From Conexivisphaerales archaeon (GTDB taxonomy: Archaea > Thermoproteota > Nitrososphaeria > Conexivisphaerales > DTJL01), in NCBI GenBank assembly GCA_049509455.1, contig JBEKZX010000014.1, forward strand, positions 1 to 28,679: a stretch of DNA of 28,679 nucleotides. The letters run 5' to 3'. Below, in pieces: positions 21,977 to 27,144 of this stretch (within the stretch, counting starts at the first letter, position 1; every line of letters begins with the position of its first letter). Under the pieces are notes generated by a model. The model was not told the origin of the DNA. It ran no database searches and worked only from the letters and a program-made list of their open reading frames with translations. Made by a program: the position numbers and the translations under genes.

Positions 21977-22375
21977 CTACAGGAATGGAGACACGCGCCG
22001 CATCAGGTCGGCCTTCGGAATGGCCCCGACGAAGCAGTCCAAGACTTCACCCTTTCTCGTTATGAAGATCGTGGGTATCCCTTGGACGCCTAACTTCGAG
22101 GGCGTCACAGGGTTCTCGTCGATGTTGAGCTTCCCCAGCACCACCTTGCCGGCGTTGTCCCTCGCTATCTCCTCTAAGAGCGGAGTCAAAGCTATGCAGG
22201 GGCTACACCAGGGCGCCCAGAAGTCGACCAACATCAGACCGTTGTTCATCACCGCGCTGTCGAAGCTGTCGTCAGAAAGTTCGAGAACCAAGGGTTGCTC
22301 CGAGGGCGCGACGACGCCTCCCGCGGGGTCCACACCAACTGAAAGATTGAATTCGTCGTCGGGAGCTGGCTGCAT
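21977..22375 (-). CDS. trxA: thioredoxin
   Basis: LVDFWAPWCSPC, KLNIDENP, GVQGIPT (cis-Pro), FVGA; acidic N-terminal extension. Confidence 0.93.
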   Translation of the reverse strand: MQPAPDDEFNLSVGVDPAGGVVAPSEQPLVLELSDDSFDSAVMNNGLMLVDFWAPWCSPCIALTPLLEEIARDNAGKVVLGKLNIDENPVTPSKLGVQGIPTIFITRKGEVLDCFVGAIPKADLMRRVSPFL

Positions 22376-22477: not shown

Positions 22478-24568
22478 CTACAGCAGGCCGCCCGCCTGAA
22501 GAAGAGCCCGCCTCGTGAGGAGCTCGGCGGTGTCACGGCGCTGCTTGGCTGTGCCTCTAGAATCGCTGATGGGCTTGATCCCTTCGACGGCGACCTTCGC
22601 CGTTTCTCTGGCGGAGGCTGGGTCCAGCTTTCTTCCGATGAGCGATGCTTCGGCACCGGTGGCCCTGACGGGGGTGGGGGCTACGGACCCCAGGGCGATC
22701 CGACAGTAGTCGACGACGCCTCCCCTGGACCCCACCAGCGCCGCTACGTTAACCTGGGCAATATCAGTGTAGGTCCTTCCGGCCTTGACGAAGGCGAAGC
22801 CCACGCCCTCCGGAGGGAAGGGAACCTCCACCTCCGTAATCAGCTCCCCGGGCTCCAGTGTCGTCCTTCCGGGTCCAAGGAAGAAGCTGGAGAGCGGGAT
22901 GGACCTGCTTCCCCTGGGGCCGATGGATTTGAGGCTAGCGCCGAGTGCAAGCAGAACAGGGGCCATATCGGCGGCGGGAGAGGCGTTGCACAGGTTTCCT
23001 CCCAAAGTTGAGACCTCGCGCAGCTCCGGCACCGACATTTTCATGGCAGTTTCGGGGAGCGCCGGGAGCTTCTCTTTGAGCAGCTTCGATTCGGCCAATT
23101 CCTTCATGGTGGTGGCCGCGCCGATAGCGACGCCTTTTTCCTTCGACTTTATGTAAGCTAGGCCCTTGACGCCCTTCAGGTCCACGATGTAGGCTGGGGA
23201 GACGAGGCCCTGCTTCATCCTGACCATGATGTCGGTTCCGCCAGCCTTCAGCATGGCGCCCCGCCGGCGGAGAGCGGCGATGGCCTCATCGATGGTCTCG
23301 GGGAAGTAGTAGCTCGCCTTCGGATAGATGGCCGTAACAGCCTGGTAACGTTCCCTGGCTTCCCTCTCGGGGAGCATCTTAATCGCCCCAGTCGGGCAGA
23401 CGCCGACGCAGAGGCCGCATCCCTTGCAGTCGTCAGGGTCCGACCTGGCGACCATCTGGACAGGGTCAATCTTCATGGCGCCCCTCCCCACGACAGAGCA
23501 GGTGGTGACGCAGCGGGTGCACGGAATGCACTCGGCCGGGTTTACCCAGGTCCTCATCCAATCTTGGAATGAGAGGTCCGAGTGGGCGACAAGGTTGGGG
23601 AGGGCCTTCCCGACGACGTCGACGACGGTCGGGTATCCCCCTTCAAGGAGGAACTGGCGAGTGCCGGTGATCAGGTCATCGATCAGCTCGTAGCCATGCA
23701 TCATAGCACCCGTCACGACCTGCGTGGCCCTGGCGCCCAGGGCCATGAACTCCATGGCGTCACGCCATCCCTCTATCCCTCCGATGCCGAATATCTCCGC
23801 CTCGGGGAGCGCCTTGGCTACCTCCGACACGATCCTCAAGGTGTTGGGCTTGACGGCGGGCCCCGACATGCCGCCGTAGGCTCCCTTGCCCAAGACGTCG
23901 GGGGCGGGGATCATGCTCTCAACATCGACGGCCGACATGACGGGGCCGTGGGTGTTGGTGAGCGTTAGGGCGTCGGCGCCGCCGGCAAGTGCCGCCTTCG
24001 CCACCGGCACGACGGAAGTCACGTTGGGTGTGAGCTTCACGGCGACGGGGACCTTGGCGAACCTCTTGACGTGACGGACCAGAGGCTCCACCAGATCGGC
24101 GTGCTGGCCGATGGCAGCACCCATGTCGTGTTCAGGGCTGCCATGGGGGCATGACATATTCAGCTCCACCATGTCCACACCGCTCTCCTGGGCGACCTGG
24201 AGCGGCTCTGTCCAGGAACTTGGATCACCGGTGCCCATCAGCGAAGAGATCAGGACGAAGTCAGACGGCGCTTCGGCCTTGATATGCCTGTTCCACTTGG
24301 CCCACTGTTCCTTCGGGTAGGTCGTTATGAGCTCGATGTTCTGGACCGAAACGACGTCCTCCAGGAACTTGCGGGCGAACATCCGGGGGCTGGGGTCCTG
24401 GGTCTCCTTGACGGCGATGGTCTTGTGGACGGCACCCGCCCAGCCCAGCTTGGCGGCGCGGATGATGTGCTCGTCGTCCCACGTGGGCGGGGCGCTTCCG
24501 AGCAGGAACGGGTTCTTCAGCGGAACGCCAGCGATCGACGTCCTGAGCTCTTCGAACGATCTTGGCAA
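22478..24568 (-). CDS. preA: fusion: dihydropyrimidine dehydrogenase PreA (FMN TIM barrel + 2x[4Fe-4S]) joined to a xanthine/CO dehydrogenase-type FAD-binding medium subunit (CoxM/XdhA-like)
   Basis: aa 1-335: NPFLLGSAPP, GAVHKT, QNIELI, ELNMSCPHG, KLTPNV, LTNT, GGMSGPAVKP, GIGGI. aa 347-391: CIPCTRCVTTC and CKGCGLCVGVCP. aa ~420-696: P.TIDEA, AGGTD, TLGGNLCNASPAAD, RIALGSVAPTP, PISDSRGT. One uninterrupted frame. Confidence 0.9.
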   Translation of the reverse strand: MPRSFEELRTSIAGVPLKNPFLLGSAPPTWDDEHIIRAAKLGWAGAVHKTIAVKETQDPSPRMFARKFLEDVVSVQNIELITTYPKEQWAKWNRHIKAEAPSDFVLISSLMGTGDPSSWTEPLQVAQESGVDMVELNMSCPHGSPEHDMGAAIGQHADLVEPLVRHVKRFAKVPVAVKLTPNVTSVVPVAKAALAGGADALTLTNTHGPVMSAVDVESMIPAPDVLGKGAYGGMSGPAVKPNTLRIVSEVAKALPEAEIFGIGGIEGWRDAMEFMALGARATQVVTGAMMHGYELIDDLITGTRQFLLEGGYPTVVDVVGKALPNLVAHSDLSFQDWMRTWVNPAECIPCTRCVTTCSVVGRGAMKIDPVQMVARSDPDDCKGCGLCVGVCPTGAIKMLPEREARERYQAVTAIYPKASYYFPETIDEAIAALRRRGAMLKAGGTDIMVRMKQGLVSPAYIVDLKGVKGLAYIKSKEKGVAIGAATTMKELAESKLLKEKLPALPETAMKMSVPELREVSTLGGNLCNASPAADMAPVLLALGASLKSIGPRGSRSIPLSSFFLGPGRTTLEPGELITEVEVPFPPEGVGFAFVKAGRTYTDIAQVNVAALVGSRGGVVDYCRIALGSVAPTPVRATGAEASLIGRKLDPASARETAKVAVEGIKPISDSRGTAKQRRDTAELLTRRALLQAGGLL

Positions 24569-24598
24569 GTTTCTTCTACCGTCTGAAACGCGTTCACG

Positions 24599-24610
24599 TA
24601 TTAATAACTT
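24599..24610 (-). promoter_or_regulatory. TATA box of the preA-coxM fusion gene
   Basis: Minus strand AAGTTATTAATA about 31 nt upstream of TTG 24568. Confidence 0.55.
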
Positions 24611-24621
24611 ATCCCGCCCAA

Positions 24622-24851
24622 GGCCTCGCCATTCTCAAGGTGACGAATGGCCCAGGGAACGTGATGGTCGCTCCATCGAAGAAGGAGGGGCTGTGCTTGG
24701 TCAGCGAGGAGCTTTCTTAGTCCACGTAGAAGGACTTCGAGGACCTCGGCTAGCCTGCTGTGAAATGGCACCTCCGAGCTATAGAAGGGGGTTCGGGTTC
24801 AAGAAGGTCCGGAAGCTGGGGAAGAGGAACTGGGTAACGCGGAAGGATCTA
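24622..24851 (+). pseudogene. decayed GNAT acetyltransferase remnant
   Basis: Frame starting 24622: GLAILKVTNGPGNVMVAPSKKEGLCLVSEELS*ST*KDFEDLG*PAVKWHLRAI. After a frame change at about 24780: YRRGFGFKKVRKLGKRNWVTRKDL. Resembles GNAT motif A (V.P..r..G.g..l) and motif B (N..AI..Y...GF). Confidence 0.45.
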
Positions 24852-24950
24852 ACGGGTGGAGGGACCTCCGCGACGCGCGACCGCCGCCTGAGGCCTTCTC
24901 ATCATGGCGCCTAGCAACGGTTAAAGGAACGTCGCACGAAGCGTGGAACG

Positions 24951-25139: not shown

Positions 25140-25694
25140 TTGGTGAAGTTCGAATCCTTCGTAAGACGGGTCGTCAGGGAGCTCAACAGGGGAGGGCTAG
25201 AGTATGCACTCACCGGCGCCCTCGCCGTTAGCTACTATGGAAGGCCGAGGACCACCTCCGACGTAGACGTCATCATACGTACGACCCCTGCTGAATTCGG
25301 AAAGCTGGCCAAGGTGCTCAGGAGGGCGAAGTTGACGGTGAAGGACGGAGACCTTGAACGCGCCTGGGAATCAAAATACAAGATCGCCTCCTTCGAGGAC
25401 GGAGACGGCCTTCGATTGGACGTGATGATGACTGACGCCGTGGTCCCAAGGAGGCCCGTCAACGTGCTGGATCTTCCTTCCTTTCTTCAGGACCCCACGT
25501 GGCTGCTCCTTTCCAAGCTCAGGATGATGAAAGTCACCATCGACGACGACAGGAGGTTCCTCGACAGGCAGGACGTCCTTTCAGTGCTGAGGAACGCCGA
25601 GGTCGACCTGCAGGTGCTGAGAGAAGAGTCAAGGCGGCAGCTGACTTTCGATGTCCTCCAAAGTCTGCTCACCGACGCCGAGGCCTACAAGTAG
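25140..25694 (+). CDS. AbiEii/DUF6036-like nucleotidyltransferase (pol-beta superfamily), putative toxin
   Basis: TGALAVSYYGRPRTTSDVDV (G-A..R.T.D.D) and C-terminal LLSKL...DRQDV. Confidence 0.8.
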   Translation: MVKFESFVRRVVRELNRGGLEYALTGALAVSYYGRPRTTSDVDVIIRTTPAEFGKLAKVLRRAKLTVKDGDLERAWESKYKIASFEDGDGLRLDVMMTDAVVPRRPVNVLDLPSFLQDPTWLLLSKLRMMKVTIDDDRRFLDRQDVLSVLRNAEVDLQVLREESRRQLTFDVLQSLLTDAEAYK

Positions 25695-25755
25695 AGGGCG
25701 CTACCCGCAAAGGCTCCCAAGACTTAAATCGCTACCCGCGCCCAATCGAAGCCAA

Positions 25756-27144
25756 ATGAGCTTCTCCGAGGAATTCTGGACGCTCAACCCCGCTACGGGA
25801 GCTAAGCTCGCTTCCTATCTGCTGATGGAGCCGCTCACCTGCCTGCGCTACGCTAAGAACGCCGCCGACGCCTTCTCGAAATGGAGAGAAGTGAGCCTCG
25901 AAGATCGTGGCCAACTCCTTTCCTCCCTGGCGGACACCCTACGGAGAGACAGGGAGAAGCTCGCCCGCATGATGACCCATGAGATGGGGAAGCCTATCAA
26001 GCAGTCGCAGGCGGAGGTCGAGAAGTGCGCCTGGACGGCGGAGCTGGTGGCTAGGGAAGGGGCGAAATGGCTGGAGGAGGAGATCGTAGAGACTGACGCC
26101 AGGAGGAGCCAGGTCACCTTTGAGCCCCTGGGAGTCATACTGGGCGTAGAACCGTTCAACTTCCCGGCTTGGCAGGCGCTGAGGTTCGCCATCCCGACGG
26201 TGATGGCTGGTGATACAGTGCTGCTGCGGCCGTCCAACGTCATCCCGGGCTCCTCCTTGCTCCTCGAAGAGGAGTTCAAGGAGGCAGGTTTCCCGGACGG
26301 GGTCTTCAAGACGTTGCTGACAGCCCATGGTGTGGTCGAGAAGGTCATCGCCTCTCCGCTGGTGAAGGGTGTATCGTTCACCGGGAGCAACTCCGCGGGC
26401 ACGGCCATTGCGGCCATCGCCGGGAAGCATCTAAAGAAGAGTGTAATGGAGCTAGGAGGGAGCGACCCATTCATAGTGCTGGAGGACGCTGACCTCGAGG
26501 CGGCGGCTAGGGCGGGGGCTGAATCCCGGTTCATCAATTCGGGCCAGAGCTGCATCAACGCCAAACGTTTCATCGTCATGGACTCCGTGTACGAGGAGTT
26601 CAGGGAATTGTTCGTCGAGGAAGTCTCCTCCTACATCGTGGGCGACCCCCTTGACCCCATGACGGATGTCGGGCCCCTGGTGAGAGAGGCTCAGCTGGAG
26701 GAGGTCGAATCACAGGTGAGGGACGCCGTAAGGAAAGGGGCGAAGGTCACCTACGGGGGTAGGCGAATGGCCGGAAGCGGATACTTCTTCCAGCCCACCG
26801 TCCTGGAGAACTTCAGCATCAAGATGAAGGTGCTCTACGAAGAGGTCTTCGGTCCTGTAGCGCCACTGGTCAGGGTGAAGGACGATTCGGAGGCCGCCGA
26901 ATGGGCCAACAGCACCGATTACGGCCTGGGCGGAGCCATCTGGACGAAAGATGACGAAAGGGCCTCCCGGCTAGCGTGGAAGCTGGACGCGGGCGTCGTC
27001 TTCGTCAACGGGCTCGTCAAGTCTGACCCTAGGATGCCCTTCGGGGGCGTAAAGGCCTCCGGCTACGGACGGGAGATGTCGAAGTTTGGCATACGCGAGT
27101 TCGCCAACGTCAAGGGCATCAACTTCTACGACGTGACGGCGTGA
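25756..27144 (+). CDS. NAD(P)-dependent aldehyde dehydrogenase (succinate-semialdehyde dehydrogenase-like)
   Basis: TLNPATG, EMGKPI, PFNFP, FTGS, catalytic MELGGSDP and GQSCINAKR, EEVFGPV, PFGGVKASGYGRE. Start revised to ATG 25756, 27 nt after TATA TTAAAT at 25724-25729. Confidence 0.95.
   Translation: MSFSEEFWTLNPATGAKLASYLLMEPLTCLRYAKNAADAFSKWREVSLEDRGQLLSSLADTLRRDREKLARMMTHEMGKPIKQSQAEVEKCAWTAELVAREGAKWLEEEIVETDARRSQVTFEPLGVILGVEPFNFPAWQALRFAIPTVMAGDTVLLRPSNVIPGSSLLLEEEFKEAGFPDGVFKTLLTAHGVVEKVIASPLVKGVSFTGSNSAGTAIAAIAGKHLKKSVMELGGSDPFIVLEDADLEAAARAGAESRFINSGQSCINAKRFIVMDSVYEEFRELFVEEVSSYIVGDPLDPMTDVGPLVREAQLEEVESQVRDAVRKGAKVTYGGRRMAGSGYFFQPTVLENFSIKMKVLYEEVFGPVAPLVRVKDDSEAAEWANSTDYGLGGAIWTKDDERASRLAWKLDAGVVFVNGLVKSDPRMPFGGVKASGYGREMSKFGIREFANVKGINFYDVTA

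Follow-up and report, generated by a model that had tools for sequence, protein, structure and literature searches.

A PreA-type dihydropyrimidine dehydrogenase module fused to a CoxM-type FAD subunit in a Conexivisphaerales archaeon

A single gene on contig JBEKZX010000014.1 of a Conexivisphaerales archaeon (assembly GCA_049509455.1), analysed here as a window of 28,679 nucleotides (nt), encodes a protein, P0001, that is confirmed to combine an intact PreA module of the dihydropyrimidine dehydrogenase (DPD) type and a complete flavin adenine dinucleotide (FAD) subunit of the CoxM/CutM type in one chain. DPD is a textbook iron-sulfur flavoenzyme in which electrons from reduced nicotinamide adenine dinucleotide (phosphate), NAD(P)H, enter through a GltD-like module. 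The favoured reading, to which we give somewhat better than even weight, is that P0001 is a self-contained DPD in which electrons would flow through the CoxM-derived FAD domain to the clusters of PreA and on to flavin mononucleotide (FMN). The open reading frame (ORF) occupies the minus strand as 696 codons in a single uninterrupted frame, and its start site agrees with the N-termini of the homologues P0003-P0010 in an alignment. All four Pfam domains of the protein (DHO_dh, Fer4_21, FAD_binding_5 and CO_deh_flav_C) exceed their gathering thresholds. The parts of the gene are as follows.

22478..24568, minus strand: whole fusion ORF of P0001, 696 amino acids (aa), with a TTG start at 24568 and the stop codon at 22478-22480.
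23654..24547, minus strand: PreA/DPD-type FMN (beta/alpha)8 barrel, residues 8-305 (Pfam DHO_dh, NCBIfam PreA, alignment with pig DPD 531-838).
23375..23545, minus strand: ferredoxin domain for two [4Fe-4S] clusters, residues 342-398 (Pfam Fer4_21; aligned to pig DPD 911-1005).
23333..23374, minus strand: C-terminal tail helix of PreA (399-410) and the predicted true join (about 404-412), from the alignment, the model and the domain limits.
22817..23317, minus strand: CoxM/XdhB-type FAD-binding domain FAD_binding_5, residues 418-584 (Pfam; AGGTD and TLGGNLCNASPAAD).
22493..22795, minus strand: CO_deh_flav_C, residues 592-692, the C-terminal domain of the medium subunit (Pfam; end-to-end alignment with CutM/CoxM).

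The N-terminal half is recognized by the NCBIfam PreA equivalog NF006183, which covers residues 7-408 at 385.7 bits, above its cutoff of 335. A residue-by-residue alignment shows that equivalents of pig DPD K574, N609, N668, C671, K709, N736 and T737 are all present. Within the barrel, SCPH holds the catalytic Cys, QNIE, ELN and TNT hold the substrate Asn residues, and two Lys bind FMN; these functional residues (one Cys, three Asn, one Thr and two Lys) are invariant in 13 relatives when fused and unfused sequences are aligned. The motif CxxCxxCxxxC occurs twice as the equivalent of pig DPD domain V, with all eight cluster cysteines invariant (13/13 fused and unfused sequences). In a structural model, residues 3-403 superpose on residues 529-1009 of pig DPD (1gth_C) over 396 residues, with a VIA Z of 47.7 and a root-mean-square deviation (rmsd) of 1.6 Å. 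A first-pass annotation of the window had described one frame with an intact PreA barrel and two ferredoxin cysteine clusters, and this description stands. The PreT module (Fer4_20 and Pyr_redox_2) is absent from both P0001 and the window in the Pfam search, whereas a comparator of approximately 850 aa (P0123) does carry both domains at its N-terminus. Apart from the fusion, the unusual PreA architectures sampled are all PreT-type or extra-ferredoxin fusions.

The substrate of the barrel must also be considered. It is rather unlikely that it is something other than uracil or thymine, such as dihydroorotate, another enone or a modified base, in which case the protein would not be a pyrimidine-catabolic DPD. 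PreA and class 1 dihydroorotate dehydrogenase (DHODH) have common active-site chemistry, a complete Pyd pathway was not found in the genome, and the fusion gene is not clustered with a dihydropyrimidinase gene. The residues that bind the pyrimidine in pig DPD are nevertheless all kept, and P0001 passes the PreA equivalog but fails the PyrD equivalog models widely (165 vs 269 and 134 vs 330 bits). Genes for the uptake or salvage of nucleosides and nucleobases recur beside the fusions: a Bmp-type nucleoside ABC transporter lies immediately upstream in one locus (L053), a Transp_cyt_pur permease in another (L052), and PNP_UDP_1 with a putative 2-thiouracil desulfurase in a third (L015). A role as the biosynthetic DHODH of the cell is ruled out by the failing PyrD models together with a separate PyrD gene elsewhere in the genome (C1:40695-41525).

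The C-terminal half matches two Pfam families over essentially their whole profiles: FAD_binding_5 (PF00941) with 164 bits across positions 3-169 of 170, and CO_deh_flav_C (PF03450) with 79.3 bits across positions 2-102 of 102. It aligns to CutM (1ffu_C) with an E-value of 4e-44, covering CutM/CoxM residues 2 to 281. The model of this half compares with 1ffu_C at a TM-score of 0.96 and an rmsd of 1.1 Å, and residues 413-695 superpose on CutM 1-285 with a Z of 38.5 and an rmsd of 1.2 Å. AGGTD and GGNLCNASPAAD are invariant in 9/9 fusion homologues. A complete medium subunit following PreA had been claimed from the letters of the sequence, and the full-length domain matches, the fold and the invariant motifs support that claim. 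The NCBIfam models for the glyceraldehyde dehydrogenase beta subunit (211 bits, cutoff 350) and for XdhB (190 bits, cutoff 310) both match end to end below their cutoffs. The closest solved relatives are CutM/CoxM, GAOR (4zoh_B) and quinoline oxidoreductase, which score above the NAD-using subunits of xanthine dehydrogenase and nicotinate dehydrogenase. The FAD half contains no CxxC motif.

Comparison of the fused clade with 60 free CoxM subunits reveals a small set of systematic changes. Q515E is found in 9/9 fusions, N518 is variable, and Y676Q occurs in 8/9, against a Tyr in 92% of the free subunits. The three positions are candidate markers of an altered partner surface or flavin environment, and their codons, taken from the alignment of fused against free CoxM, are located as follows.

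About 23022-23024, minus strand: replaced residue 515.
About 23013-23015, minus strand: replaced residue 518.
About 22539-22541, minus strand: replaced residue 676.

An AlphaFold2 model of P0001, built on a 120-row alignment, has a mean pLDDT of 94.9 and a pTM of 0.87, with no dip in confidence at the junction. The sequence LPxxEAxxxY (residues 399-410) is the native tail of PreA and occurs in unfused PreAs too, E403 and A404 being invariant; the junction helix at 401-409 is ordered in the model (pLDDT 90-94). A linker of about 25 aa had been noted previously, but most of it is this conserved tail. The domain limits in the structural alignments (PreA 3-403, CoxM 413-695) place the predicted join at about nine residues. 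The two ranges match solved structures separately, and no solved chain among the structural matches listed spans both modules. When residues 1-412 and 413-696 were paired in a complex prediction together with FAD and two [4Fe-4S] clusters, run without controls, the ipSAE values were 0.26 and 0.14 (mark 0.32), which weighs neither way on docking.

The fusion is present in a series of independent assemblies. A word-indexed search retrieved eight further clusters (P0003-P0010) that are 696-702 aa long, 57-87% identical and alike in their precomputed Pfam architecture, giving nine protein clusters at 57-100% identity from JGI, NCBI, ENA and Logan assemblies. One of the relatives carries the label Conexivisphaerales. 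The first-pass annotation had treated a lack of homologous fusions in related genomes as grounds for rejection; these nine clusters are such fusions. The motifs of both halves are retained down to 57% identity. In an exhaustive HMMER scan of 1.84 billion representatives at 50% identity, a single one spans residues 1-696, namely the window's own cluster, and the other matches cover one half only. Separate trees of the two halves each unite the nine fusions in one clade (SH-aLRT 98 for PreA and 97 for CoxM), with P0010 basal in both. This congruence points to a single fusion event followed by joint evolution.

These data bear on whether the gene is an artefact or is decaying, be it a misassembled chimera or a pair of genes that a sequencing error has run together. 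One genus member (G065, a 10-contig assembly) has the gene in two frames, which would favour such an explanation. The break in G065 consists of two 1-nt insertions approximately 50 nt apart inside the barrel, away from the junction, and they are positioned as follows.

L038:1960-2010 (G065:C3, about 136450-136500): two 1-nt insertions in the G065 fusion gene, from sequence comparison.

Their position excludes a natural split at the domain border; the interruption is either a long-read indel or assembly error, or a recent pseudogene with local decay. With the junction uninterrupted in all nine clusters and the half-trees congruent, the idea of an artefact is effectively refuted. The fusion is old but has been kept only in patches, as judged from two lines of evidence, neither of which depends on genomes flagged as unpublished. 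A PreA homologue occurs in 4/36 species representatives of the order, comprising three fusions in the genus of the window and one unfused gene (G014). On the contig of the most divergent fusion, the encoded IMPDH shares 78-79% identity with its counterpart in a second family of that order, compared with 61% or less for every other IMPDH. By these sequence comparisons, two or more families of a single archaeal order carry the fusion.

The two halves have separate relatives. The PreA half is sister to a clade of unfused archaeal PreAs of approximately 440 aa from Fervidicoccaceae and others, with a joint support of 100 and a long stem; these proteins are its closest PreA relatives, at 50-55% identity. 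The genes etfB-etfA, for an electron transfer flavoprotein (ETF), adjoin the sister-clade preA in 5/6 loci read. They are divergent from preA in four loci (L017, L018, L020 and L054), and the fifth holds a co-directional preA-etfB-etfA-fixC-fixX operon (L055:5001-9567). The unfused preA of G014, at a contig edge, has no etf gene within 1 kb. A nitroreductase-family gene follows PreA in the four divergent loci. The gene order of the fifth locus suggests an ETF-coupled, perhaps bifurcating, pyrimidine reductase, and to our knowledge the ETF-linked clade is uncharacterised to date. Since the unfused sister clade sits beside etfBA, the fused domain probably displaced ETF and not PreT. For the CoxM half, the tree gives a weak grouping with free CoxMs of ordinary CoxL-CoxM-CoxS operons, including a copy on contig C2 of the same genome.

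Other PreAs have different arrangements on the input side. A more distant PreA from Thorarchaeota (P0050) lies in a full reductive pyrimidine cluster with a dCMP/cytidine deaminase, a dihydropyrimidinase, a CN-hydrolase, a class-III aminotransferase and an aldehyde dehydrogenase (ALDH); neither PreT nor any other flavin partner is found in this cluster. By analogy with PydAc, it is probably ferredoxin-dependent. PydAc of Clostridium chromiireducens has been characterised as a ferredoxin-dependent enzyme without FAD/NADPH domains, in a study whose survey of 3419 PydA sequences scored Pyr_redox_2 partners only (PMC7332683). Together, the etfBA-linked clade, the PreT-less Thorarchaeota cluster and PydAc make the electron-input side of PreA demonstrably modular and interchangeable in archaea. 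On the sequences compared, the CoxM solution is unique to the fusion clade. The chances are evenly balanced that a CoxM-type subunit acts here as the autonomous flavin input of a non-molybdenum enzyme, a third independent solution for PreA after PreT and ETF.

In the proposed mechanism, uracil or thymine would be reduced to the 5,6-dihydropyrimidine at the DPD/PreA-type FMN site. The FMN would receive electrons via the two [4Fe-4S] clusters of PreA, which in turn would be fed by FAD bound in the C-terminal domain recruited from the medium subunit of a molybdenum hydroxylase. This domain would work without CoxS or CoxL and would take the place that PreT has in bacterial and animal enzymes and that ETF apparently has in the nearest unfused relatives among archaea. 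The protein is probably a homodimer, by analogy with pig DPD. The external donor would most likely be NAD(P)H acting at the FAD, as in xanthine dehydrogenases, which is the least secure step. We infer the FAD occupancy, the transfer from FAD to cluster, the direction of flow, the identity of the donor and the dimeric state. The host encodes a haem-copper oxidase, which we take to make an NAD(P)H-linked input a better fit than low-potential ferredoxin. The first-pass annotation had suggested that the CoxM-like domain replaces PreT. A flavin input other than PreT is the best reading of a gene that stands alone, with a TATA-like box of its own, in four distinct genomic contexts, in a genome free of orphan CoxL/CoxS and among archaea whose PreA partners are interchangeable; the replacement of PreT is true by functional analogy only.

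Several observations weigh against this self-contained, NAD(P)H-linked DPD. The solved structures nearest to the FAD half outscore the NAD-using subunits, and the enzymes to which they belong are not known to use NAD(P); reactivity with NAD(P)H is therefore not implied by homology. The search of the genome for preT, coxL/coxS and hydA that had been recommended returned two GltD-like genes on other contigs, one of them of the NfnB/GltA type and paired with a PyrK-like gene, and these could in principle act in trans. In favour of the reading, it found no orphan among the CoxL/CoxS pairs and returned a bona fide dihydropyrimidinase (517 bits vs 393), but the latter is unlinked to the fusion. Dihydropyrimidinase occurs in 5/5 genus genomes, two of which have no detected fusion, so that there is no co-occurrence signal. 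No beta-ureidopropionase was identified in the genome, where the sole clear CN-hydrolase match is Nit1-like; a second CN-hydrolase match is weak and broken by a stop codon, and the search for an M20 carbamoylase was negative. The full pyrimidine pathway is thus not demonstrated.

It is possible, if doubtful, that the FAD domain trades electrons with a different carrier, be it ferredoxin, a quinone or another protein, in the way that CoxM serves CoxLMS enzymes at their exit, and that the enzyme may run oxidatively. The FAD half is indeed nearer to CutM/CoxM and archaeal GAOR than to NAD-dependent XdhA/XdhB or NdhF-type subunits, and its nearest free relatives are ordinary members of CoxLMS operons. 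PreA relatives also use ferredoxin (PMC7332683) and probably ETF. The oxidative direction is without an obvious physiological role. Ferredoxin could pass electrons directly to the clusters as in PydAc, which would make the FAD domain needless; yet the domain is conserved to 57% identity. As for a quinol, it is too oxidising to drive pyrimidine reduction.

The genome (G000; 2.05 Mb, 95.5% complete) is rich in molybdenum hydroxylases. A profile search found 11 CoxL, 11 CoxS and 13 CoxM-type domains, with each of the 11 CoxL/CoxS pairs having its own CoxM within approximately 3 kb. The two surplus CoxM domains are the fusion and a fragment at a contig edge on C55. The eleven CoxS-CoxM-CoxL triads lie on C2 (two copies), C44, C45, C49, C56, C57, C64, C97, C98 and C119, and the CoxM copies of C44, C45, C49, C64 and C98 form one tight clade. 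This is a large paralogue expansion for an archaeal genome of 2.05 Mb. No molybdenum cofactor (Moco), CoxL, CoxS or 2Fe-2S genes are located near the fusion in four distinct genomic contexts, the window included.

The first-pass annotation had also offered a second idea, that the fused CoxM docks CoxS/CoxL encoded elsewhere and that the hydroxylation of a purine, aldehyde or pyrimidine feeds pyrimidine reduction. The wealth of triads is compatible with such docking, as is a CoxM fold that is complete including its C-terminal domain and that keeps 64 of the 79 positions conserved in free CoxMs. The adjacent CoxM of every CoxL/CoxS pair and the lack of Moco or 2Fe-2S genes at the fusion loci speak against it, as do the systematic replacements at residues 515, 518 and 676 and the tethering of the ferredoxin domain within about nine residues of the CoxM N-terminus. 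The idea is left unsupported and is considered improbable. A transient form, in which CoxS/CoxL docks on the fusion in competition with its own CoxM and wires hydroxylation to reductive pyrimidine ring opening as a dismutation independent of pyridine nucleotides, is at best a faint prospect.

The fusion can be compared with several known systems. Like E. coli YeiT-YeiA (PreT-PreA) and pig DPD (1gth/1h7w), it has the same FMN barrel, catalytic Cys, Asn/Thr residues and two-cluster ferredoxin, and the logic of a flavin input, an iron-sulfur wire and FMN is retained. In contrast to DPD, its input is not GltD-like and the two N-terminal clusters are absent; it carries instead a PCMH-fold FAD domain at the C-terminus, where DPD has its input at the N-terminus. 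PydAc (PMC7332683) likewise represents a PreA-type enzyme that works without the FAD/NADPH module of PreT and so has a replaceable input side, but it has no flavin input domain and uses ferredoxin as the donor, whereas the fusion has a different FAD domain covalently attached. The ETF-linked archaeal PreAs have the conserved C-terminal tail in common with the fusion and also lack PreT, but they are unfused and have etfB-etfA as neighbours in place of a CoxM domain. The class 1B DHODH PyrD-PyrK has a related FMN barrel that is fed through iron-sulfur by a separate FAD protein; PyrK differs in its FNR-type fold and 2Fe-2S cluster, and the enzyme acts on dihydroorotate.

With CoxM/CutM and the FAD subunit of Sulfolobus GAOR (1ffu_C, 1n5w_C and 4zoh_B), the fusion has a full-length match of the fold (TM 0.96, rmsd 1.1-1.3 Å) at 33-34% identity. 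It differs from them in that it is not encoded with CoxS/CoxL, is joined to a non-molybdenum enzyme, falls below the cutoffs of the named subfamilies and has Q515, N518 and Y676 replaced. In the subunits HcrB (1rm6_B) and PaoB (5g5g_B), electrons can pass between a flavin in the CoxM fold and an adjacent [4Fe-4S] cluster, although there the clusters are insertions inside the FAD subunit of genuine Moco enzymes and not a fused PreA ferredoxin domain. We know of no other CoxM/XdhB-type medium subunit outside the molybdenum hydroxylases, and the fusion would be the first.

Full-text literature searches found no description of a PreA-CoxM fusion, in line with the earlier impression that the architecture is apparently undescribed, nor of an ETF-coupled PreA. 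A review of iron-sulfur flavoenzymes gives the GltD-like input alone for DPD (PMC8097209). Source databases name the fusion proteins plainly as 'PreA subunit', a label that conceals the additional domain and wrongly suggests PreT as a partner. The fusion is encoded by a small group of hot-spring archaea, and on the favoured reading its CoxM-derived domain would give a known enzyme a novel electron input. The fusion, the ETF-linked clade and PydAc provide a test bed for swapping input modules on a fixed iron-sulfur/FMN core, and the fusion offers enzymology a compact, single-gene and probably thermostable DPD.

The surroundings of the gene add some minor observations. A TATA-like box, read from the sequence, is a candidate for the fusion gene's own promoter.

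24599..24610, minus strand: TATA-like box AAGTTATTAATA, approximately 35 nt upstream of the TTG start.

Immediately downstream of the fusion, and on its strand, is a thioredoxin gene, which occurs in the window (21977-22375, minus strand, with its own TATA-like box) and again in a relative of 75% identity (L052:10235-10672); it is missing in the relatives of 69% and 57% identity. An ORF of 195 aa on the opposite strand (24327-24914, plus strand) overlaps the fusion gene over its first 80 codons and has no family match. At the syntenic place in a relative of 83% identity (L014), a GNAT acetyltransferase of 196 aa is encoded without any overlap with the fusion, and the ORF in the window may be spurious or a remnant. 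Away from the window, hydantoinase-like and OTCase-like genes with CoxSML on contig C2 had the look of a purine-type cluster, an idea set aside when NCBIfam identified PyrC and PyrB there. An ALDH gene (25651-27144, plus strand), syntenic with the fusion in L014, has its best match to the succinate-semialdehyde dehydrogenase type, below the cutoff. In the Thorarchaeota cluster, too, PreA is flanked by an ALDH, and the ALDH of the window could oxidise malonate semialdehyde derived from beta-alanine.

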